From IMG/VR virus record IMGVR_UViG_3300009136_000001, positions 1 through 64,000 of that record: a stretch of 64,000 nt of DNA. One strand, written 5' to 3'. Both the position numbers and the translations under genes were made by a program. Shown here piece by piece: positions 37,739 to 49,323 of the stretch (positions within the stretch are counted from its first letter, which is position 1; the number at the start of each line of letters is the position of its first letter). The DNA is from a virus. The notes beneath the pieces were generated by a model that made no database searches, had not been told where the DNA came from, and worked only from the letters and a program-made list of their open reading frames with translations.

Positions 37739-38338
37739 ATGGCACAACAGCAGACTTCATTTCTCCCTACTGATTTCGGAGCAAATGCGAATCTTAACCT
37801 TGGCAACCAGCAGACTCCGTTTGGTATACCAGACTTTGCTGCCAATGGCGGAGCACAATCAACTCTCTCACCGCTGAACTATCAGGTACCGACAAATTAC
37901 ATGGATGCTGCTGGAGCAGACTTCACTGGTCTCAGTGATATCCCCGGTCAAGGTGGGCCTGGAGGAGATTTACCTGGATTCAATTTTACTGACTTCCTCT
38001 TCGGGAAATCTGAACAAGGTGCAGACGGTGCTGTTATGAATACCCCCGGAGCACTCAAACCGATATCCAGTGCACTTGGATCAGTAGCTAATATCTACTT
38101 CGGTATGAAGAGCCTGAACATGGCTGAAGACCAATTCGATTTCCAGAAGGAAGCGTTCAACAAGAACTTCGACGCCAATGCTCTATCCTTCAACAACCAG
38201 GTTCAAGGCCGGTCAGACGCGGTAGCCAACGCTACCTCAAATGCTGATCTCGGTATCGCCAATGATGCGACTCCTGCACAGCGAGCAGAAGCGGAAGCTG
38301 CATTCTCTAAACAACGCTCAGCAGGGAAGACCCTCTAA
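37739..38338 (+). CDS. N4 gp52-like ejection protein
   Basis: YFGMKSLNMAEDQFDFQKEAFNKNF motif; synteny. Confidence 0.7.
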   Translation: MAQQQTSFLPTDFGANANLNLGNQQTPFGIPDFAANGGAQSTLSPLNYQVPTNYMDAAGADFTGLSDIPGQGGPGGDLPGFNFTDFLFGKSEQGADGAVMNTPGALKPISSALGSVANIYFGMKSLNMAEDQFDFQKEAFNKNFDANALSFNNQVQGRSDAVANATSNADLGIANDATPAQRAEAEAAFSKQRSAGKTL

Positions 38339-39612
38339 TGCCTGAATTCGGAAATACATTCCGCCCAGTAGCGGTACAGTTGAATGACCCGACTGCCGGT
38401 ATTGCCCGAGCAGGACAGTTGTTCGATCGAGCAGTTAAAGGTTTTGGTAGCATCCAAGATGATGTGACCGCTAACCGTGATGCCAACGTTGCGAGTCAGA
38501 CCGAAGCCAACACTGCCAAAATCATATCTGAGATCCAAGGTAACCGTGATCTTGATTCCGTGGATCAATCCTCAGCTGACATCATCTCCGGCCTGTCCGG
38601 TCGATTCGATGGTGACGTTAACACTGGTGGCTTTGATCTCAAAGCTATCAATCAGGCTGCCAGCGATCACCGTGCTGAACTGCTGGATACCAAGACCAGT
38701 GAAAGTGCGTTGGTCACTGAAGGCTTAAAGCAGCAGAACGAACAGTTCGATGTGGATAACAACCAGAAGCGATTGAATTCTACTCTCGCAGCACAAAGTG
38801 CTCAGGTAGCTTCGTCCAATGCACAGACTGACCTGTCCAAGCTGAACACTCGTATTGCCACTGCACGTATGGACAAGGTTGAGTCTGACGTTGCACACAC
38901 TGAAGCCCTGTCACAAACATTCCTGAACTTCCCGATATTGACCGGGGAGAACAAGACTGCCACTACCAAGGATTTCGCTCAAGCGATGAGTCGATTCCGT
39001 GCTTCCGCCCTGAAAGCAGGTACTCCTCCGGACGTACTGAAGAAGTTCTTTGAAGACACTGGTTTGATCGATCCTTCTACTGGTTCTGCAAGTGCCTCTG
39101 GTCTCCATCGTGGTATCACTCTCCAGAATAAGAACCTGGAAGCCATTATCGATGAAGACCTGAGTACCATGGATGGGTTAAATGGTAAGGGAGAAGACTA
39201 TGGTTCTAAGGTAAATGAGGTTATACTCCGTCAAGCAGGTGGAGATCTCGACGACGATGAACTTATCGGATTCGCTGGCGAAGACGTACTCCCGGAATTT
39301 CTGGAGATCATGAGTGATCTGAACAGCAAGCTTCCGGTAGATAGCAAGAACCAGTTCACCATGCAAGATGTATACGCAGCAATGACCTCAGAAGATGTCG
39401 GTTTCTCCGCTGATCTCATTGGATCAGGTGGTTCAATGGACGGGGATAAGATGAGGTCTGGACTGAAGAAAGCAGGTGAGAAGCGTCATGCAGCAAAGGC
39501 GAAGCTCCAAGCTAAAATAAAAGCGAACCAGGCACAACAAAAAATCCTGGCAAATCAACTCATTACCCATGCGTATCAGCAAGCAGGAGCGGGTAACCCT
39601 TTAGGTCAATAA
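38338..39612 (+). CDS. N4 gp51-like ejection protein
   Basis: 424 aa helical, no Cys seen, directly before vRNAP. Confidence 0.6.
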   Translation: MPEFGNTFRPVAVQLNDPTAGIARAGQLFDRAVKGFGSIQDDVTANRDANVASQTEANTAKIISEIQGNRDLDSVDQSSADIISGLSGRFDGDVNTGGFDLKAINQAASDHRAELLDTKTSESALVTEGLKQQNEQFDVDNNQKRLNSTLAAQSAQVASSNAQTDLSKLNTRIATARMDKVESDVAHTEALSQTFLNFPILTGENKTATTKDFAQAMSRFRASALKAGTPPDVLKKFFEDTGLIDPSTGSASASGLHRGITLQNKNLEAIIDEDLSTMDGLNGKGEDYGSKVNEVILRQAGGDLDDDELIGFAGEDVLPEFLEIMSDLNSKLPVDSKNQFTMQDVYAAMTSEDVGFSADLIGSGGSMDGDKMRSGLKKAGEKRHAAKAKLQAKIKANQAQQKILANQLITHAYQQAGAGNPLGQ

Positions 39613-39615
39613 CCC

Positions 39616-42600
39616 ATGGCTTTTAGTACGAACTTTAAGGCAGTTAACTCTGCCTTTTTGCAGATAGGTAAGTCAATAGAGTTAGCTGAAGGCACGGAAC
39701 GAAAGAAAGCTCAGCTCGACTTCAAAACTGAGAAACTGTCGCTCGATAAAATTATCGATGGCGATACTGTCCTCATCACCAATCCTGACGGGACTACCCG
39801 TAAGATGCGCCTTGCCAATGGCGGCACAGGTCGCTCCCTGGATACCTACGAAACATTTAAAGATCTGGAGACCATGGATCCGGAGATGCGGGTTCGCATG
39901 GAATCCAAACTCCTCAGGCAACGTGGTGCACTCGCCAGAGAGCGTGGCGTAGATCTGGATGATGTCACCAACGAGAATGTATTCGAGCAAGGTGAGAAAG
40001 GCAGAGCAGCCCTGTACCAATCTTTATTGGATGGGCAGAACCCAGAAGATCTGGGTGGGCCACATGATACATCCCCCCTATTTGAATACGCTGACCTTGG
40101 TACCGAAGGTAAGTACAAGCGTGCGCTCGGGCTGACCCGGAACAGATCCGGTGTCATATCCAACCTCGCTCTCAATACTCCTGAGCTGAATGCCGCATAC
40201 GGCAGTGACTACAATGCTGTCGGACGGCAAGCATACTCTCAGGCGATCGAAGAACAGGAACGAGCCGCTGCAAAGCGACGGGCTGAAACTGGACTGTCAG
40301 ACGAATTCGCTGCCACTGGTGTCGGAGCGGTCGTTGATACTACAGGTAGACTCGCTGCCGGAGCGCAGCACGTTATCGGTATGGTTGCTGATCTACCGTT
40401 GGCTGGGATTGAGTGGATGGCTGATGGTCTTGAGCCTAATCCAGAGCTTGAAGGCACAGATGGTTACAATGAGCTGGTACATAATATTACCCAGTTCAAA
40501 AAGCAAACCAAAGAGAATCGCTCAGCAGTCGCTAAGCTATTTGAGGGTGGTACCAAATTCTGGAAGTCGTTCACCAACGATAAGAAAGTTGAAGAGACCA
40601 TGGCTTCGCTGGAGAAAGCCTGGGATCACGATCGATTTGCATCTGACTTTGCCGGTATCCTGGTTGAGAACCCCCATGCTACTTTGCAGTTCCTGGGTGA
40701 ATCCATACCGTTCATGTACACAGCTGCCAAGAAGGGAGCTGCTCTGCCGTTTGGTGCAGCGTTCACTGGTGAGAATTATAAAGCTGGTGTAGAGCTGTAT
40801 GAAGCCACATACGACAAAGCTCCCGAGACTGAAGAGAAGGCTTTGATCCTTGCTGGTGCCGGATTCATTGCCGCAATGAACAGTGCTGCATCCAAGTACG
40901 TAACCGGCGAAGAAGGCATGAAGATCATGCTTCGTAAGCTTGGTTTCAAAGGTATGAATTCTTTCATGACTCAGACAGCTGCTAAGCTGGGTGCCAATAT
41001 CCCTGCTGGTCGGTTGAAGAGCATGAGCGAGATGCTACTGAAAACCTCAGTCACTGCACTGACGCCAGCTGCACAGCTTGCTACCCGAGGTGCTGTTGAA
41101 TTTGTACAGGAAGGATCTGAAAGTCTGATCACTAAAGGTTCAGTGTTCCGTGATTTCAGTCAAACCTTCACTGATTCTAATCTGAAAGAGGCAGCCGTAT
41201 CTGGTGCCATTGGTTTCGGTACTGGTGCGACAGCTGGCCCCACGTTCCAAGCAGCAGGGGTGGTGAAGCTCGCCGGGATAGTAGGCAAGCAGACAGTCGA
41301 GAAAGGTGTTAAAGCCGCTGAGAACATCCCCTTCAATCGTGACGTAGCGAACTTCCGTGTTGACCAAGGTGATGAAGTTGTCAGTGGTGGTACCGCTGAA
41401 TCCCTGCTCCGGGAAATCAATGAAGAGTTTGCTGTCTTTGAGAGCGAAGCAGAAGCCAACGAGTTAGCCAACAATCCTCAGGAATTCGAAAGACGTTCAG
41501 CTCAACTGATGGCGAAGACCATGGATCTTGCTACCCATCTCCAAAAGATGGATAAGAAGACTCGTGCCAAGAATCCTGAAATGCAGGAAGCTGTTAACAA
41601 AGTTGTATCAGCTATCAATCTGCAGAGTGCCGCCGATGCTAACGCGAAGGTGGAACAAATTGAGAACCTACTGGCTTCGGAGAACGTCGATGAACAACAG
41701 CAGGGTATTGACCGGGTACTGGGATCGAGTGAAGAGGCTCTTTCGGTCTCCACCGAAACGATCGATAAAGCAATCGAAGTATCCCCGAATGAAAGTGTCA
41801 CCCAACAACTCAACGAGATCAAGCGAAAGAAAACTCTCGAAGAAGTAGCGGAAGACGTACTCCGTGGTAAGCCTGGATCTGGTTTCATCGGTGTGAAGAA
41901 TCGTCAGTACATCGCAGAGCGTTTGCTAAAATCAGGCGATATTGACGGAGCCAATGAGCAACTTGCAGAAATACGCAGATTCCGGGAAGTACATGGTGAG
42001 AAAGCCACCACTCTGATCAATGCTCAGAAGCAGTTCAAGGAAACTGGTCGAGGACAGACGGTAGAGATCGGTGGGCAGAACTTCTTTGTCGATGCCAGGT
42101 CGAAGAAATTAATCAACCAGGTCAGAGCTGAAGTCTTTGCCTTGAATGAAGTCGGTATGGCTTTGAAGAAAACCATCGCTGATGCACAGGTGAACACTCC
42201 TGAAGTAGAAGAGACCCAATCTGAGACCGAAGAGACCCAAATTGAGACCCCTGTCACAGCCCCTGCTGCTGTACAAGGGCTTGTAGTTCCTACTGCCAGC
42301 GATATTAGCACTCAGCTTAAAGAGGCTCGTAAGGGCAGCACAGACGCTCTCAAGCGCTTGCAAGAGCAGGCTGAAGTATTAGCCCAAGCTGGGAATAAGA
42401 AAGTTGCCAAGAAAATAACCGATTCTATTAAAAAGATCGAGGAAGCAGCGACTGCGGAGCGCGAAGCAGCGGAGCAGGAAGCGGCTGACGAGGCGATCAA
42501 CGACTCCATTCCAGATTCTGGAATACAGAATGAACTTGAATTGAAGCGAGGTGATTATGAATTACTGGACGTACTCGAAACAAGTAAATCCAACAAGCGT

Positions 42601-45600
42601 ACTCCGTTGGATGTACCGGCAAGCAACAAGCTTATACAAGCATTTAATTTTACCAGGGTTACATTATCTACATTTTTTAGCCGCAGTGCTAAAAGCAAAG
42701 CTAATGAAGCTCAGGAACCGATAGACGAGACTGATGCTGAGCACCTTGAACTCCTGAATGAGCAGTTCAAAAAGTACAGAAATATAGCCAAGCGTTTACC
42801 GAAGTTGGTCGGCAAAGAACTGAAAGCATTGCAGACGTTCACCAACAAGCAGGGTAAGCAGGTGAAAGCTGGTGGTCATGGTGATGACATCATGATGGAC
42901 ATGGCTGCACTACTGCTGGAAACTGACAAAGATGGTAACCTGATGTTACCTGATGACGTTATCCTTGCCTCATTTATGGGCGCGATGAACTGGATGACTC
43001 ACCAGAGCAAGGCTACCCTGTGGAATGACGACAAGCTGATAAACCAGCAGCTCTCACAAGCACCGAATTCTACTCTCACCAGTGAGCAGAAGCGTTTAAT
43101 GAGGGAGCGCGGTAGCAAGCGTGACTTCGTTGCCAAGACAATCGGTACTGACATATTTAATTCCTTGGCATTGAAAGCTGATACTTCTCAGCCGCTCGCC
43201 AGAGAGAAGATGATCATGTCCCTCGGGCTGTTCGCCACCAAAGTAATGTCCGCCATGGAAGAAGATGGTGACAAGTGGTTGACCGAAGATAGCGTATTAT
43301 TGGAGAATCTTGCCAATGTATCCAAGTCCTCAGAAAAAGTACAGGAGAAAGCAAGCCAAGTCTTCTTCATGCGGATATCCCCGGACTCAAAGAACAATCT
43401 GCAGGAAGCCCCTGGTCTGACGAAAGTGATCGACCAGTTTTCTGCAGCTATGCCGACAGCCCGTAAGCTGTTCAATCTGGAGAACTACGAGCGTAAGCCT
43501 CGATCGAAGCCCAGCAAGAAAGTAAATGATGCTCCTCGGGGTAATTTATTCAAAGCTGGAGCTACTGCTCTGGCTCGGGTACTGCATCTGCAGCAGGTAC
43601 CGTGGACTATGAATGCCACTGGTGACCTGACAGCCAAGTTGTCTGATGGGTTACTGAAGTCCATCTCTGGATATACGGAAGATGTTGCCACCACTGTGCA
43701 CATTACACAGCAGGGTGCTGTAGCAGCGGTCAATCGCCAGATTGATGATGGTATTAAGTACGCCAAGGAAATGCGGGAAGCTTTAGAAGACCCGGCATCC
43801 GGATTTGAAAATGGCGAACTGTTCTTTGATTACGAGATCTGGAGTAACAGCCGGGTCGGTATGACCAGCAATACCTTCGATCCTCAGAACAGCAAGTATC
43901 ACCGACACATTGTATCGCCGAAGAGCCACAAGACTACGGTGAACAGCAAGCGTAGGTTAGCAAACTTTAAGCGAGGCATAGCACTCGCATTTGATTACTC
44001 GGACAAAGGAGCCGCAGATGACTTTAAAACTGGTGCACAGCTCGAAGGAACCCTTAGTTCAGTCGAAGAAGAATTCGACCGGATCATCCACGACCCCAAG
44101 GTTCGCGCTGCGATCAGTGCAATCCGCGAAGTGCAAGCCCAGGAAGGTGCCGCATCCGAAGCGCAAGAAAGGATTATCCTTTCAGCAGTCGGGGATTCCG
44201 ACACCAAGTTCCACGGACTTGAAGCGCTTGTGGAATTATCATCAGCGCTCGGTACTCGGTTCGGCCTAAAGAAATCTTTCACTACTACCCTGTCAGTTGA
44301 GACTGATGGCGTAACGTCTGGGGTTACACTGGGTCTGATGCAGGCTCCGATCGTAAACAATATCCAGACCTGGCTGGCTCGGGGTGGAATATTCCTGAAC
44401 GGGAATTTCACTAACCTCGGTGACGCACGGGAAGCTATCCCAACCGACTCCTACCAGCAGCTGGTTCTCGATGCAGTCAAAATGCTGGAACAGGTGAACC
44501 CTGCCGGACTCGAACAGGTTGAAGCGATTCTGGGTAAGCTGACCGAAGATGGGGCAGTGACCAGCGTAGGTCGTAACCTGATGAAGAATCCTCTAATGGT
44601 TTACTCCTACGGAGCAGGTGAGTTCGCAATTAAGCGACATATGGCGGGAGCAATCCAGACAGCTCTGTATGAGAAGCTGGCGGAAACAAACGGTGACAAG
44701 GAAGCAATGGACGAGTTGTCGCAAACCGTTTCTGCACTTATGCGACAAAACGTTGTCTTTGAAGATCACCTTACTTCCGAGTTCAGCAAGTCTGAGCAGG
44801 AAGCATTCGACAAAGCAATCTACGATTCGATCGGTGATGCGACTGTATCTTCCCTGGATCATAATTTTAAAGAGATGGCTGACCAGCGCAAAGTTCTGCT
44901 GCAGGCATTGAGTATCAGTTTCCATACCTTCGAGATGAAGTACATCGAGGCAGTCCAGAAGTACAAGGACTCCAATGGTATCACGAGTCAGTTCCTGAGC
45001 AAGGAGCAGAAGAAAGAAGTCCTGAACCGGCCTGATGTTAAACCGTTCATTCCTTATTTCAATAGCCCGTACGGAACCAAGAACCGGGAATCTGCGGTCT
45101 CAATACTCGCCGAAGAGATTGTACGGGGCATCATTAATGACGAGAATCGTGGAGCATCTTTCTTCACTCCGACGGTCAGTAATCGAATTCCATCGTACAC
45201 AAGTGACACTTCTGGCTCACAAGTCGGTCAATCTGGTCAATCTTCCTCCGCTCTTGTTAAGAATAAGCGCTACCGGGTAGACGGTGTAGCAGCCCTGCCG
45301 AAGATGATTCACACTTTGGATAGTACACTCATTCTGGATACCCTGAACAAGTTTGATGGGCTGAACATTCATGATGCTGGCATGTACAGTGTCGACAGTG
45401 TGGACAATGCTACCAAGCTGTACAATCAGAAGGTATTCGAGACAGGTCGGAACTACTCGTTGATCGGTGACATAACCCAGATGGTTACAAACCAGACCAG
45501 CAAGCTGACCGAGGAAGAAAAGGTCAAGGTACTGGAAGGCACCATAGCCGAGGAAGATGCCCGGATCAAGAATGAAGAGAGCAAGCAGGATATCAATACT

Positions 45601-48600
45601 GATACTACTGACTTTGACGATCGGATTAAATTCCTGAACAAGATCTCTCAGGATATCCAGGCTGCCAAGGAGAATCTGTTTGAAAGCATCTCGCATGTTC
45701 ACCAGGCAGCGTACCCGTCACAGTCCAGCGTATACAGCACCGGGCAGGAAAAAGAATACAGCCCGATGTGGATCGACTTCGAATACCACCCCGGTGAGTA
45801 TGATGCTGTCGAGATTCCGATGCAGACCCGAGAAGAATATTCCGAAGGCGTGCTACAAAGCAGCCAAGACTCCCTATCCAATTTCGAGGCAAGTTATGAG
45901 AATGAAGCTACTGCAGAGACTTCGCAACAAATTTTTGATGTCCTATCTAAGTTTGGTCATGTACGAGAGAACGGTCAACACCAGCGTCATCTACGCGGGA
46001 TCCTGGATACAATTATAAACAAGGCTCTGAAGCCTGCTCAAGAATTCATTATCCAAGTTGGTGATGATGCCAAGGCGAGAAACGTCGGGCAGATTTCGGG
46101 TAAAACGATCCAGATACAGCTCGGTAAGTACCGTCCTGATCTATCCTTGAACCAATCCGCCGAGGAGATCTACATCCACGAACTGTTGCACGGCATAACA
46201 GCGAACGAACTGGATAGCAATTTTGCTCTGCGCCAGAAACTGGCTAAGCTATTCGAGACAGCGAAGAAGCACATCACTCCAGCCGATCTGATTACCCCAG
46301 CGGTAACCCAGACTCGTACTGTCATGATGGATCACGTTGAAGCTCTGGCAGCTCAGGCACGCTACGACTACATCTTTAACAATCGGAATGCTACCGGAGG
46401 CTCAGACGGGCTGCATGAATTCCTGGCGTTTGGATTATCCAATGAGACCTTCGTCAAGAAGCTGGCAACTATCCCCTTTAAAGTTCCCAGGGAAAAAGCA
46501 ACGAACGTGTTCGAAGCGCTGATCAACCTGTTCCATAAGATATTCGAAGCAGTCGCATCTAAATACCACGGCAAAGTAAATGTCGGTAGCGATGTGTACT
46601 CACAGCTGTTGGATCTGACCAAGGATTTAACTGCCATCAATGAAGGCTGGCGTTTCCCAATGTCCGGCATGTTCGGAGCCATAAATGATCGGAAGCAATC
46701 TTTCGAGAATTCTGTGTATTCCAAAGGTGACGCACTTCGTAAGAAGCTGAACACCATGATCGATGCGGATAGAAGCGCAGTGCACCGCAAAATGTTCACC
46801 TTGGTTAACACCCTGAAAGCAGTATCTCATGAGAAATTTGGTAAGACCCTTATCCAGTGGCTCCAAGACCACACTGAGGGCGACAGCTTCATGGGAGTCC
46901 TATGGAGAGAATTAGCAGGTGGCTCTGAACACTTCCGTAATTGGTTACCCCTGCTGCGGTACAGCAAGCAGCGGATCGATACTGCCCGCTTAGCAGCCAA
47001 GCAGAACATCATCCGAATTCTGGGCGAGACATTCGTCGAGGAAGCTACGGACGAAGAGAAAGAAATGCTGCATGATGCTTTGCTGAAAACTGACCTGGCA
47101 GCTCTCCTACCCCAGAACCCAACCAACCGGGATATCCGGGAGATCATGAAACTCTTCAGTGACCCGGCTGAGATCGATGCCGCAATCAATGAGATCATGA
47201 AGAAGATCGGCAATGTGAAGCAGAAGACCTACTATCAAAAGCAGGCTAATAATCTGGGTTACTTCATGGCTACCGGCAACAACTCGCTGGAGCACGCCAA
47301 CCTGAATGCATACAACATAGCTCGCCTGAGCTTAACCGATCGGGTGAATAACGATCTGGCTACCACGGATACCGTTGCTCTGATTGATCAACTGGCTTCC
47401 CTGTACGCAATTAAGTACACTTCTTCAGATGCGAAGGTATTATTTACCGAGTATGTTACCCGTACGTTAGCCACTGACTCCAAGACCAATGCTATTCGAT
47501 TGATCCTGAACCTGCAGGCTGACCATAAAGATTTCACCAGGGATAACCTGTTCAAGGATGAAGCTCACAGCGTCATCAAAGGTTTCACCAATGAGCTGAT
47601 CGACCAGAACATAGCGGTCAAGGTCGGCAAAGTATCGGATGAAGCGATACTGGCGAAGCAGGGATTCAAGATAGCTTTCAAGATGGATAGCTTAGCTGAT
47701 GGCGAGAAGATGGCTTTCTACACAGCGATGAACGGAGCAGCCACAACCTACACCCGTACCATATTCAGTACAACTGCGGAAAATGTGAAGGGTACCACTC
47801 TCACAGCAGCGTTCATGAATGATAACCCACTGGTAGGACGCTCCGAAGCGAAGCTGGCGCAGAATGCTCTGCGTAAGCAAGCAATGGAGAATATGAATAA
47901 GCAGTTCACCGGGAAGGTTCCTGACCTGAGCCAAAGATCCACCAGGCAGAGAAATCCCCTGATCCCATTGGTTAACGCCAAAGGCGAGAGTTACGAGTAC
48001 CGTCAGATCCTGAATCACCAGATGAGGAAGGAGCACCTGAACGAGGACAGACGTATCGATGAAGTACTGGGTGCGATGTACGGAGCAATGAAGGACAAGC
48101 TGAATACTCGCAAGAATAATCAGATCGTTATCGAGAACCTCTACAAGGATTATCAGGACAATTACGACAACGAGCCTGATCAGTTTGTCCGGGTAGGTGT
48201 GAATGGTGACTACGGTGACGTATGGGCGGTAATCCCAGAGCAATCCAAAGAACACATCAGGAGCCTCACAGGAGTCCGTGAGATCTACATCCGGGCCGAA
48301 GTGGTAGATCTTGTCATGGGTTACAGAAAGTTCTCCCTGAGCGATACCAAGATGGCTAAGCGGGTACTCCCCCCACAAGTTCGACACATCATGGATATCA
48401 GTGGAAAGGTTTGGCAGGAGATAGTTGCCCTTGGTGCTGTGCAGATCGTCGTGAAGACGCCTCAGGTGCTCGTAGACAACGTTCTCTCTAACACGATCAT
48501 TCTTATCAGGGACGGATTAAATCCCACTGACATCGTTCGTAGGCACCTTGAGGGGATCGCTGCGCTGAACCAATACGAATTGGACATCTCTGAAGAGCAG

Positions 48601-49323
48601 AAACTGGTACTTGAACTCCAACAGGATGCTAATAATCACCGAAAAGTAGCAAAATTGGCAAAGGTTAGGGAATCAATCAAGAGAAATCCTGTCACTGAGC
48701 TTGTTACAGAGGGTATATTCCAGAGTATAACTGAGGATATTAACGTAAATAAGTACACGAGTGCGTCAACGATAGCCAATACCCGTGTAGGTAAGGCTGT
48801 CCAGAACAACATGCCAGGGTTTATGACCCCTATATTTCAGCACGTATTCATGACTAAAGATACGTACCTGTTTAAACAGTTCCTAAAAGCAACTCAATAC
48901 AGTGATTTCCTTGCTCGATACACACGGTATGCATTCCTGAAGGAGAAGGAAGGTCTTGATCAATTGGAAGGTGATGCTTACAGGCTGAAGAAAAATGAGA
49001 TTCTTGCTGACCTGATTGAAGATTACGTGAACTACGATGTGCCACAGCACAAGATGCTGCAGTACGCTAACGATATGGGGATGGTTCGTTTTACGAAGTA
49101 TTTCTTGAGAACTCAACGAGTGATCGTTAAGAAGTGGAAGCAGCAGCCAATCAATAACATGGCGTCAGTATGGTTACAGCAGGTGGTAGGTGATCAGCCA
49201 GATATCAATGACAGCTTCATGCCCTTTATGAGTCCAATGGATAAGGTATCTATCTTCGATGTTATATCTGATGCGACAGATCCGAAAGGCTTGGAACTGG
49301 CAGGTGGGTTGTTCGGACTATAG
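39616..49323 (+). CDS. Virion-encapsidated RNA polymerase (N4 gp50-like)
   Basis: 3235 aa, no Cys seen; T7-type motifs NSRVG, A ETDGVTSG, B RNLMKNPLMVYSYG, C IHDA; C-terminal HELLH and QYSDFLAR. Confidence 0.95.
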   Translation: MAFSTNFKAVNSAFLQIGKSIELAEGTERKKAQLDFKTEKLSLDKIIDGDTVLITNPDGTTRKMRLANGGTGRSLDTYETFKDLETMDPEMRVRMESKLLRQRGALARERGVDLDDVTNENVFEQGEKGRAALYQSLLDGQNPEDLGGPHDTSPLFEYADLGTEGKYKRALGLTRNRSGVISNLALNTPELNAAYGSDYNAVGRQAYSQAIEEQERAAAKRRAETGLSDEFAATGVGAVVDTTGRLAAGAQHVIGMVADLPLAGIEWMADGLEPNPELEGTDGYNELVHNITQFKKQTKENRSAVAKLFEGGTKFWKSFTNDKKVEETMASLEKAWDHDRFASDFAGILVENPHATLQFLGESIPFMYTAAKKGAALPFGAAFTGENYKAGVELYEATYDKAPETEEKALILAGAGFIAAMNSAASKYVTGEEGMKIMLRKLGFKGMNSFMTQTAAKLGANIPAGRLKSMSEMLLKTSVTALTPAAQLATRGAVEFVQEGSESLITKGSVFRDFSQTFTDSNLKEAAVSGAIGFGTGATAGPTFQAAGVVKLAGIVGKQTVEKGVKAAENIPFNRDVANFRVDQGDEVVSGGTAESLLREINEEFAVFESEAEANELANNPQEFERRSAQLMAKTMDLATHLQKMDKKTRAKNPEMQEAVNKVVSAINLQSAADANAKVEQIENLLASENVDEQQQGIDRVLGSSEEALSVSTETIDKAIEVSPNESVTQQLNEIKRKKTLEEVAEDVLRGKPGSGFIGVKNRQYIAERLLKSGDIDGANEQLAEIRRFREVHGEKATTLINAQKQFKETGRGQTVEIGGQNFFVDARSKKLINQVRAEVFALNEVGMALKKTIADAQVNTPEVEETQSETEETQIETPVTAPAAVQGLVVPTASDISTQLKEARKGSTDALKRLQEQAEVLAQAGNKKVAKKITDSIKKIEEAATAEREAAEQEAADEAINDSIPDSGIQNELELKRGDYELLDVLETSKSNKRTPLDVPASNKLIQAFNFTRVTLSTFFSRSAKSKANEAQEPIDETDAEHLELLNEQFKKYRNIAKRLPKLVGKELKALQTFTNKQGKQVKAGGHGDDIMMDMAALLLETDKDGNLMLPDDVILASFMGAMNWMTHQSKATLWNDDKLINQQLSQAPNSTLTSEQKRLMRERGSKRDFVAKTIGTDIFNSLALKADTSQPLAREKMIMSLGLFATKVMSAMEEDGDKWLTEDSVLLENLANVSKSSEKVQEKASQVFFMRISPDSKNNLQEAPGLTKVIDQFSAAMPTARKLFNLENYERKPRSKPSKKVNDAPRGNLFKAGATALARVLHLQQVPWTMNATGDLTAKLSDGLLKSISGYTEDVATTVHITQQGAVAAVNRQIDDGIKYAKEMREALEDPASGFENGELFFDYEIWSNSRVGMTSNTFDPQNSKYHRHIVSPKSHKTTVNSKRRLANFKRGIALAFDYSDKGAADDFKTGAQLEGTLSSVEEEFDRIIHDPKVRAAISAIREVQAQEGAASEAQERIILSAVGDSDTKFHGLEALVELSSALGTRFGLKKSFTTTLSVETDGVTSGVTLGLMQAPIVNNIQTWLARGGIFLNGNFTNLGDAREAIPTDSYQQLVLDAVKMLEQVNPAGLEQVEAILGKLTEDGAVTSVGRNLMKNPLMVYSYGAGEFAIKRHMAGAIQTALYEKLAETNGDKEAMDELSQTVSALMRQNVVFEDHLTSEFSKSEQEAFDKAIYDSIGDATVSSLDHNFKEMADQRKVLLQALSISFHTFEMKYIEAVQKYKDSNGITSQFLSKEQKKEVLNRPDVKPFIPYFNSPYGTKNRESAVSILAEEIVRGIINDENRGASFFTPTVSNRIPSYTSDTSGSQVGQSGQSSSALVKNKRYRVDGVAALPKMIHTLDSTLILDTLNKFDGLNIHDAGMYSVDSVDNATKLYNQKVFETGRNYSLIGDITQMVTNQTSKLTEEEKVKVLEGTIAEEDARIKNEESKQDINTDTTDFDDRIKFLNKISQDIQAAKENLFESISHVHQAAYPSQSSVYSTGQEKEYSPMWIDFEYHPGEYDAVEIPMQTREEYSEGVLQSSQDSLSNFEASYENEATAETSQQIFDVLSKFGHVRENGQHQRHLRGILDTIINKALKPAQEFIIQVGDDAKARNVGQISGKTIQIQLGKYRPDLSLNQSAEEIYIHELLHGITANELDSNFALRQKLAKLFETAKKHITPADLITPAVTQTRTVMMDHVEALAAQARYDYIFNNRNATGGSDGLHEFLAFGLSNETFVKKLATIPFKVPREKATNVFEALINLFHKIFEAVASKYHGKVNVGSDVYSQLLDLTKDLTAINEGWRFPMSGMFGAINDRKQSFENSVYSKGDALRKKLNTMIDADRSAVHRKMFTLVNTLKAVSHEKFGKTLIQWLQDHTEGDSFMGVLWRELAGGSEHFRNWLPLLRYSKQRIDTARLAAKQNIIRILGETFVEEATDEEKEMLHDALLKTDLAALLPQNPTNRDIREIMKLFSDPAEIDAAINEIMKKIGNVKQKTYYQKQANNLGYFMATGNNSLEHANLNAYNIARLSLTDRVNNDLATTDTVALIDQLASLYAIKYTSSDAKVLFTEYVTRTLATDSKTNAIRLILNLQADHKDFTRDNLFKDEAHSVIKGFTNELIDQNIAVKVGKVSDEAILAKQGFKIAFKMDSLADGEKMAFYTAMNGAATTYTRTIFSTTAENVKGTTLTAAFMNDNPLVGRSEAKLAQNALRKQAMENMNKQFTGKVPDLSQRSTRQRNPLIPLVNAKGESYEYRQILNHQMRKEHLNEDRRIDEVLGAMYGAMKDKLNTRKNNQIVIENLYKDYQDNYDNEPDQFVRVGVNGDYGDVWAVIPEQSKEHIRSLTGVREIYIRAEVVDLVMGYRKFSLSDTKMAKRVLPPQVRHIMDISGKVWQEIVALGAVQIVVKTPQVLVDNVLSNTIILIRDGLNPTDIVRRHLEGIAALNQYELDISEEQKLVLELQQDANNHRKVAKLAKVRESIKRNPVTELVTEGIFQSITEDINVNKYTSASTIANTRVGKAVQNNMPGFMTPIFQHVFMTKDTYLFKQFLKATQYSDFLARYTRYAFLKEKEGLDQLEGDAYRLKKNEILADLIEDYVNYDVPQHKMLQYANDMGMVRFTKYFLRTQRVIVKKWKQQPINNMASVWLQQVVGDQPDINDSFMPFMSPMDKVSIFDVISDATDPKGLELAGGLFGL

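Follow-up and report, generated by a model that had tools for sequence, protein, structure and literature searches.

A predicted staphylococcal nuclease-like domain at the N-terminus of the virion RNA polymerase of an uncultured N4-type phage

Results

We examined a window of 64,000 nucleotides (positions 1 to 64,000 of IMG/VR virus record IMGVR_UViG_3300009136_000001, a viral record of 79 kb that is rated 100% complete) and focused on the beginning of its giant virion RNA polymerase (vRNAP) gene, open reading frame (ORF) P0001. Residues 2077–3200 of the gene product match phrog_2206, 'virion RNA polymerase', with E=0, and residues 1642–1763 match the Pfam model PF21894 (N4_RNAP_helical) with 27.2 bits (cut-off 27). 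A tblastn search with the C-terminal 1240 residues matched 474 named N4-like phage records, all at less than 60% identity. The best named tblastn matches to the protein, at about 25% identity, were the vRNAPs of Vibrio, Alteromonas and Pseudoalteromonas schitoviruses. A giant single chain with an N4 RNAP module and a C-terminal domain is the layout of the gp50-type vRNAPs of the Schitoviridae, and by its sequence the 3235-residue ORF is an N4-type vRNAP.

A sequence-only reading of this DNA had placed a staphylococcal nuclease (SNase, thermonuclease) domain at positions 39727-40215, which correspond to residues 38–200 of the vRNAP, on the basis of several short motifs. We found that the motifs are present exactly as quoted in the translation of 39616-49323: KIIDGDTV (residues 45–52), KMRLA (63–67), SLDTYE (74–79), GEKGRAAL (126–133), GKYKRALG (165–172) and NLAL (183–186). 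The features of the gene and its surroundings are collected in Table 1.

Table 1. Features of the vRNAP gene and its upstream neighbours in the window (aa, residues of the vRNAP unless stated otherwise).
Feature	Position	Strand	Basis and remarks
vRNAP ORF (P0001), 3235 aa	39616..49323	+	Single unbroken frame (ORF list and translation)
N-terminal leader, aa 1-34	39616..39717	+	Modelled helix; predicted local distance difference test (pLDDT) <50 for aa 1-33; outside the SNase fold
Predicted SNase/thermonuclease-fold domain, aa 35-215	39718..40260	+	AlphaFold, Foldseek, VIA, hhalign, profile against PDB
D48-G49-D50 codons, counterparts of SNase D19-G20-D21	39757..39765	+	hhalign; D48 and D50 each 15/15; position 49 is G or A
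R65 codon, counterpart of SNase R35	39808..39810	+	hhalign, 'Rla' on 'FRL'; 14/15 in register
R65-D76 stretch with 6-aa family insertion (aa 68-73, against SNase L36-V39)	39811..39840	+	hhalign gap; modelled small extra beta-hairpin, strands 61-68 and 71-74
D76-T77-Y78-E79 codons, counterparts of SNase D40-T41-P42-E43	39841..39852	+	hhalign and hidden Markov model (HMM) alignments
Family insertion, aa 80-118, including helix 89-110	39853..39969	+	hhalign gap of ~35 aa; AlphaFold model
K166-Y167-K168-R169 codons, counterparts of SNase K84-Y85-G86-R87	40111..40122	+	HMM and hhalign; family 'YgR.L' on SNase 'YGRGL'
Gly-rich segment of weak hydrophobicity that follows the nuclease head, aa 226-270	40291..40425	+	Kyte-Doolittle peak 247-265, mean 1.21
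HELLH motif, aa 2188-2192	46177..46191	+	Motif search
Three genes 5' of the vRNAP gene: 888, 199 and 424 aa	35071..39612	+	ORF list; co-oriented

Single-sequence searches of vRNAP residues 1–245 against Pfam, PHROG and PDB gave no SNase match; Pfam returned a sub-threshold 'collagen-flanked surface repeat' at residues 51–72, and the query alone matched NCBIfam 'thermonuclease NucI' at E 0.0012. Relatives were collected with a phmmer scan of 1.84 billion cluster representatives, which returned 19 matches: the query itself, 13 genuine family members and five repeat proteins that were discarded. Two further relatives came from other searches, one of them 68% identical to the query and the other found via P0019, and a search of IMG/VR with the single query protein found no relative. 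A search of viral contigs with a family alignment gave one locus, a duplicate of P0011. The domain lies at the very N-terminus in all 13 phmmer relatives except P0016, in which it starts near residue 110.

The five discarded proteins (P0003, P0008, P0014, P0017 and P0018) are long and repeat- or adhesin-like. They match vRNAP residues ~7–82 or short stretches many times, each time weakly and with sequence bias, and were dropped as spurious. Positions 39634-39861 (residues 7–82) gave 27 matches to the ~117-residue repeats of the 3579-residue P0003, with a total E of 8.8e-46, and weaker matches to other repeat proteins. Homology to these repeats was rejected because the single repeats are weak and the bias is high, and we take the signal to be a helix plus beta-hairpin look-alike.

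Searches with the family gave a consistent picture. Four of the 15 family members matched phrog_452, 'endonuclease'. When a 14-sequence family profile was run against all PDB sequences, the 20 best matches were all staphylococcal nuclease (E 0.011–0.09), in two collinear blocks that place IDGDT...D.PE on SNase 12–54 and YGR.L...G..LNEAL on SNase 67–118. For profile–profile comparison we assembled a set of nine SNase domains, which come from phages, from a provirus and from a genomic island of Salmonella; it includes SPbeta YokF, cyanophage 'endonucleases' and an S. aureus Nuc that lies on a phage record. Against this set hhalign aligned query residues 42–190 with SNase 13–107 at Prob 94.8%, P 5.5e-8 and a score of 53.9. 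The reversed alignment scored 21.5 (3%), and 20 column shuffles scored at most 14.5 (at most 0.3%). hhalign, the PDB profile search and the NucI match all show profile-level similarity to genuine SNase domains.

The structure was modelled with AlphaFold2. The single sequence gave a pLDDT of 38.6, and the 15-sequence alignment, with no templates, gave a pLDDT of 79.5 and a predicted template modelling score (pTM) of 0.74, with residues 35–226 confident. The model has strands at residues 37–40, 46–48, 51–55, 61–68, 71–74, 155–164 and 169–175 and helices at 89–110, 119–138, 182–186 and 198–226. The order of these elements is that of SNase, a five-stranded OB barrel with three helices (beta1-3, alpha1, beta4-5, alpha2, alpha3), with one extra helix inserted between beta3 and alpha1. 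In a Foldseek search of PDB the best 50 matches listed were all staphylococcal nuclease, with E from 1.4e-4, template modelling scores (TM) by target of 0.48–0.58 and ~20% identity. VIA-align, which is independent of Foldseek, was run against 48,161 representative chains, and its top 11 matches were all SN-fold with Z 5.3–7.9. SNase itself (1sta_A) had Z 7.7, with 116 of 137 residues aligned at 28% identity; SND1 and eTudor domains were also among the top matches, eTudor reaching Z 7.9. A Z of 7–8 taken alone is 'middling' by the standard of the tool, yet the match list is homogeneous. In BFVD, a collection of predicted viral structures, the best matches were viral thermonucleases at E 2.5e-3 and weaker.

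Large BFVD entries (chunks or proteins of 983–1368 residues; A0A7R7G2A4_1, A0A516LXN0_1, A0A6J5NQ80 and A0A646QXC0) also gave weak SNase-like fold matches at E 0.04–0.2. If the suffix '_1' is taken to mean that a long protein was split and that this is its initial part, A0A7R7G2A4_1 and A0A516LXN0_1 could be further vRNAP heads.

Because independent methods converge on one family and one residue register while the controls collapse, the SNase fold lies beyond chance resemblance. The SNase-type domain that had been read from the motifs was borne out by the sequence profile, by the controlled profile–profile comparison, by template-free modelling with two structure searches and by residue conservation. 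We therefore consider it very probable that residues ~35–215 of the vRNAP form a divergent domain of the SNase (OB-fold) superfamily.

Next, we counted residue conservation in the 15-sequence family alignment, which has a mean column identity of ~31%. Eight columns are invariant, and four of these are D48, D50, E79 and R169. The sequence-only reading had claimed an identical counterpart, in the same order, for each catalytic and Ca2+-binding position of SNase, and hhalign yields the same pairing (D48/D50, R65, D76/T77/E79 and R169). Cotton et al. are said to have assigned the Ca2+ ligands of SNase in 1979 as D21, D40 and T41, the last through its backbone only. By alignment register the predicted counterparts of these ligands are D50, present in 15 of 15 members, D76, which is D in 13 and N in two, and position 77, which is T or A. 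The counterparts of the general base E43 and of the phosphate-binding arginines R87 and R35 are predicted to be E79 (15/15), R169 (15/15) and R65; in the sequence that lacks R65 in register, an R stands a few residues away by eye. Opposite SNase Y85, family position 167 holds Y, F or H. A published summary describes what Ca2+, R35, R87 and E43 do in SNase (PMC8436206).

Compared with staphylococcal nuclease (Nuc, SNase A), the vRNAP head has the same order of fold elements and 27–28% identity over ~95–116 aligned residues. The IDGDT, RL, DT.E and Y.R motifs are identical and in the same order, so that D19, D21, R35, D40, T41, E43, Y85 and R87 all have counterparts. The two differ in other respects. 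The head carries a 6-residue insertion between the positions of R35 and D40 and a helical insertion of ~35–40 residues after E43, which stands in for the omega-loop of SNase beside the active site. Ten of the 15 members have a net positive charge in this helical insertion; in this phage the charge is −1. SNase P42 is replaced by an aromatic residue, and the isoelectric point (pI) of the head is ~4.8 compared with 9.2 for SNase. Finally, staphylococcal nuclease is a free secreted enzyme, whereas the head is the first ~215 residues of a presumably injected polymerase of 3235 residues.

The eTudor/SND1 (Tudor-SN) domains, which gave the best or tied VIA matches (Z 6–7.9), resemble the head in that their SN folds are interrupted by an insert. 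However, they are eukaryotic non-catalytic scaffolds with a Tudor insert and 4–15% identity, whereas the head has the full catalytic set and a single-helix insert. The marks of a non-catalytic SN-like scaffold, namely a lost Asp/Glu/Arg set together with a Tudor insert, were not found here. The head also differs from the stand-alone SNases of phages and mobile elements (SPbeta YokF, cyanophage 'endonuclease', Mycobacterium phage 'SNase domain protein'). These are viral or prophage genes of the same superfamily, but they are small and separate (137–330 residues), often have a signal or lipoprotein leader and lack both insertions. They are made after infection and are not packaged in the virion, whereas the head would be packaged.

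We then examined how the domain is distributed. The family comprises at least 13 clusters at 50% identity among the 1.84 billion representatives, so far from uncultured phages only. All nine full-length members (9/9) are vRNAPs of 3235–4156 residues that are homologous through the RNAP and C-terminal regions, and the shorter members look like truncated ORFs. A maximum-sensitivity hmmsearch with the family profile found no match in the vRNAPs of N4, phi50-12, VBP47, PT15-A5 and Vibrio phage 2.130.O, and neither PF00565 nor the family profile was found in the whole genomes of these five phages; as a positive control, the profile recovered the window's own record at E 1.2e-72. Five family N-termini were also run by tblastn against 50,697 records of named phages, without a match. 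Of these records only 67 contain ordinary SNase genes, and there was no schitovirus among the matches listed. In the literature searched we found no description of an SNase on a vRNAP or of a thermonuclease in Schitoviridae. The question of novelty within the Schitoviridae, raised by the sequence-only reading, was thus answered in its favour for the named records, for the five sampled schitovirus vRNAPs and genomes and for the literature searched. As judged by these sequence comparisons, the SNase head on a vRNAP is absent from the named phages searched and is so far confined to uncultured phages.

To place the headed polymerases, a quick maximum-likelihood tree with Shimodaira–Hasegawa-like approximate likelihood ratio test (SH-aLRT) support was computed from the C-terminal 1200 residues of the nine SNase-headed vRNAPs and five named outgroups. 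The nine fall into one deep group with an SH-aLRT of 92 at its base, and they span deep branches of the tree, with more than one change per site. Since the catalytic residues have been kept across such deep divergence of the vRNAPs, the site has been under long purifying selection. The vRNAP of Alteromonas phage vB_AemP_PT15-A5 (L005:882-11369), which has no SNase-like N-terminus, is nested within the SNase-headed group with an SH-aLRT of 99. A headless polymerase nested among headed ones requires two changes, such as a single ancient gain plus a single loss, which suggests from the sequences that the head was lost or replaced in PT15-A5. This phage is also the nearest cultured handle on the SNase-headed clade.

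The N-termini of the other vRNAPs were compared with the head and with the Gly-rich segment that follows it. This segment has a weak collinear match to residues 38–92 of the phi50-12 vRNAP, in which 'GNVASLPMS' of phi50-12 corresponds to 'GMVADLPLA' here; by this weak match phi50-12 has reached the equivalent segment by about residue 90. In N4 gp50 a Gly-rich hydrophobic stretch starts, by eye, near residue 115, and the region near 115–140 resembles the segment. Membrane helices have been predicted at residues 224–278 of the N4 vRNAP N-terminal domain (PMC13434306). By analogy, the segment may correspond to these membrane-associating helices and mark the end of the variable head. In the vRNAP of Vibrio phage 2.130.O (L006:1701-2690, residues 1–330), residues 30–125 gave a Phage_lysozyme-like match to PF00959 at E 3.5e-4, with 21.3 bits against a cut-off of 22.3. 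The N-terminus of the VBP47 vRNAP (L004:1818-2807) is closely similar to it by eye and gave no Pfam match. On this sequence evidence, the extreme N-terminus of vRNAPs before the Gly-rich segment looks like a variable enzymatic slot that is empty, lysozyme-like or occupied by a nuclease.

The surroundings of the vRNAP gene resemble those in N4. By position, the gene order around it appears the same as in N4 and phi50-12, and the three genes upstream, whose sizes fit, occupy the position of the N4 tail-plug and ejection-protein genes gp53-gp52-gp51, to which they may correspond by analogy of position. Matches among the upstream genes were to phrog_2220 and phrog_2646, both of unknown function. 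The 424-residue gene (38338-39612), which adjoins the vRNAP gene at the gp51 position, matched no PHROG family at E<=0.001. Within the C-terminal region of the vRNAP, the HELLH motif has the HEXXH signature and fits a zincin-like metallopeptidase module on the basis of the motif alone; such a module always accompanies N4-like vRNAPs (PMC5512222, Iyer et al. 2017). GC content gave no sign of a recent horizontal acquisition of the nuclease head (0.46–0.55 compared with 0.44–0.53 in the flanks).

Discussion

What has been described for N4 provides a frame in which the head can be considered. An N4 virion holds about four copies of the vRNAP. The N-terminal domain, which associates with gp51, is the first part to exit and associates with the inner membrane; refolding of the RNAP and C-terminal domains takes place in the cytoplasm (PMC13434306, PMC13492108). 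By comparison with N4 gp50, the capsid of the present phage would hold the whole vRNAP, and infection would begin with its expulsion through the tail, led by the N-terminal domain. The nuclease head would then be the leading end of the ejected protein and would lie at or just inside the entry complex of the inner membrane. There, Ca2+ would be held by D50, D76 and the backbone of T77, the scissile phosphate would be polarised by R65 and R169, and E79 would activate water, so that the head would hydrolyse nucleic acid by the SNase mechanism, in which DNA and RNA are cleaved in a Ca2+-dependent way to products with a 3'-phosphate. In this way host, competitor or defence nucleic acid would probably be cut at the entry site before phage genes are expressed.

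We favour an enzyme over a scaffold because the catalytic residues are complete and have long been conserved, and from these residues the head is predicted probably to act catalytically on nucleic acid. By analogy with N4, it is reasonably likely that the head is an active Ca2+-dependent nuclease that is delivered at time zero and attacks nucleic acid of the host, of competitors or of defence systems where the phage enters. We read the head as a further effector of a 'polyvalent' protein that would be injected; in related vRNAPs the corresponding slot is empty or taken by a lysozyme.

Several observations weigh against an active nuclease delivered in this way. The presumed Ca2+ ligand D76 is replaced by N in 2 of 15 members, and the two insertions flank the active site and put in question whether R65 reaches into it. 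The SNase model PF00565 (cut-off 21 bits) found no match in the query, in any of 14 family members or in the six-frame translation of the whole record. The SNase match that had been expected in residues 1–220 was thus obtained with profile, fold and Foldseek comparisons, but not with the PF00565 model itself, and by sequence the domain is classed as a divergent new family of the SNase superfamily, outside PF00565 proper. The head is acidic in most members (pI ~4.8–5.2); however, genuine SNase homologues of marine cyanophages are equally acidic, and we set this argument against a nuclease function aside. In addition, SNase needs about millimolar Ca2+, and free Ca2+ in the bacterial cytoplasm is sub-micromolar. 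Activity in the cytoplasm is therefore doubtful, and a periplasmic site or a changed metal requirement is favoured. Storage in the capsid poses a further difficulty. In an engineered T4, a packaged SNase digests the packaged DNA (PMC7697877). An active non-specific nuclease beside the genome would destroy it, and the head must therefore be masked, unfolded, starved of metal or restricted in its substrate while in the capsid.

These difficulties give some room to other explanations. The motifs might resemble SNase by chance, or the model might be misfolded, in which case the region would be a variable unstructured start of the vRNAP N-terminal domain. The failure of PF00565, the low pLDDT of the single-sequence model, the VIA Z of 7–8 in the tool's own 'middling' range and a PDB profile E of only 0.011 speak for this. 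However, independent methods agree on the family and on the residue register, the reversed and shuffled controls collapse and the conserved columns are the catalytic ones, and we regard chance resemblance as extremely improbable. A different possibility is that the head is an SN-fold module that binds nucleic acid or protein and does no cutting in vivo. Such a module would grip the leading end of the genome, or dock a gp51-like ejection protein, in the first, transcription-independent step of DNA entry, and its catalytic residues would be kept as a binding pocket. SN folds often lack catalysis, the eTudor and SND1 binding modules are among the best VIA matches, and at low cytoplasmic Ca2+ an SNase site would bind without cutting. 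In N4, gp51 is bound by the N-terminal domain, which has been linked to the injection of the genome (PMC13434306), and a binder would avoid the self-digestion seen with the SNase packaged in T4 (PMC7697877). Nevertheless, the acidic and arginine set has disappeared from the SN-like domains that are non-catalytic, whereas here the set is invariant or nearly so across very divergent vRNAPs, which is the pattern of an enzyme. Moreover, N4, phi50-12 and PT15-A5 inject their DNA without such a head, so it is not needed for entry itself. We consider a pure binding role rather unlikely.

The other alternative keeps the catalysis and moves its place. If the head were left on the periplasmic side of the membrane-inserting segment, it could be an active nuclease of the periplasm or envelope that cuts extracellular or periplasmic DNA, such as that of a competing phage, a plasmid or the matrix. 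The slot itself speaks for this, since it is lysozyme-like in Vibrio phage 2.130.O (just below the Pfam cut-off), and the VBP47 N-terminus is closely similar by eye. Lysozyme fusions to vRNAPs have been reported (PMC5512222), and lysozyme acts only in the periplasm. The Gly-rich segment follows the head, Ca2+ is available in the periplasm, SNase is natively extracellular and Ca2+-dependent, and the closest named relatives infect marine hosts. Against it, the hydrophobic segment is weak (mean hydropathy 1.2) and topology cannot be predicted from it, no obvious benefit at the moment of ejection is known, and in current models of N4 the vRNAP lies in the cytoplasm, with its N-terminal domain as the tether (PMC13492108). 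On balance a periplasmic nuclease seems to us quite improbable, and we retain cutting at the entry site as the preferred account.

A nuclease head fits a known theme, that of polyvalent vRNAPs, and is a new addition to it. N4-like vRNAPs have been described as polyvalent proteins that combine a metallopeptidase with lysozyme, ART and PBECR RNase modules, the last three being optional (PMC5512222). The vRNAP studied here appears to share their design of a giant packaged and injected RNAP with an HEXXH module, seen here as a motif only, and optional effectors, and by position the gene order is alike. However, that survey lists no SNase, whereas the effector here is a nuclease of the SNase type; the vRNAPs of N4, phi50-12, VBP47, PT15-A5 and Vibrio phage 2.130.O likewise lack the head. 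The ParB-like DNases of polyvalent proteins are reported to be neither accompanied nor displaced by other DNase domains (PMC5512222). A parallel for packaging is the engineered T4, in which SNase is enclosed with the genome by means of the capsid-targeting sequence of an internal protein, as is proposed here (PMC7697877). That construct is artificial and digests the packaged DNA, whereas the vRNAP fusion is natural and conserved; some mechanism must therefore keep the head harmless in the capsid.

More tentatively, it is possible that an uncultured, marine-type clade of schitoviruses carries in its capsids, next to the phage genome, a latent but catalytically competent SNase-type nuclease that forms the front of the injected polymerase. 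Such a nuclease would be silent in the virion, being unfolded, masked by a gp51-like protein or limited by its substrate, and on ejection it would destroy host, rival-phage or defence nucleic acids before gene expression.

N4-type vRNAPs are a model for the passage of a large enzyme together with DNA through the cell envelope, and a function is still being sought for their N-terminal ~900 residues. Our results suggest that the extreme N-terminus is a swappable slot for a head, which may be empty, a lysozyme or a nuclease with an intact active site, and they would widen the catalogue of effectors that are delivered as protein at time zero of infection. Because the family is invisible to Pfam, such heads are currently unannotated in metagenomic phage genomes. 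At ~190 residues the domain is small and lends itself readily to expression. Whether the head lies in the periplasm or in the cytoplasm bears on the topology of the ejectosome, and its predicted presence in the virion raises the puzzle of how densely packed DNA can survive next to a stored non-specific nuclease. If the proposal is true, these phages would carry a ready-made nuclease effector within the virion, fitted with a safety mechanism of its own.

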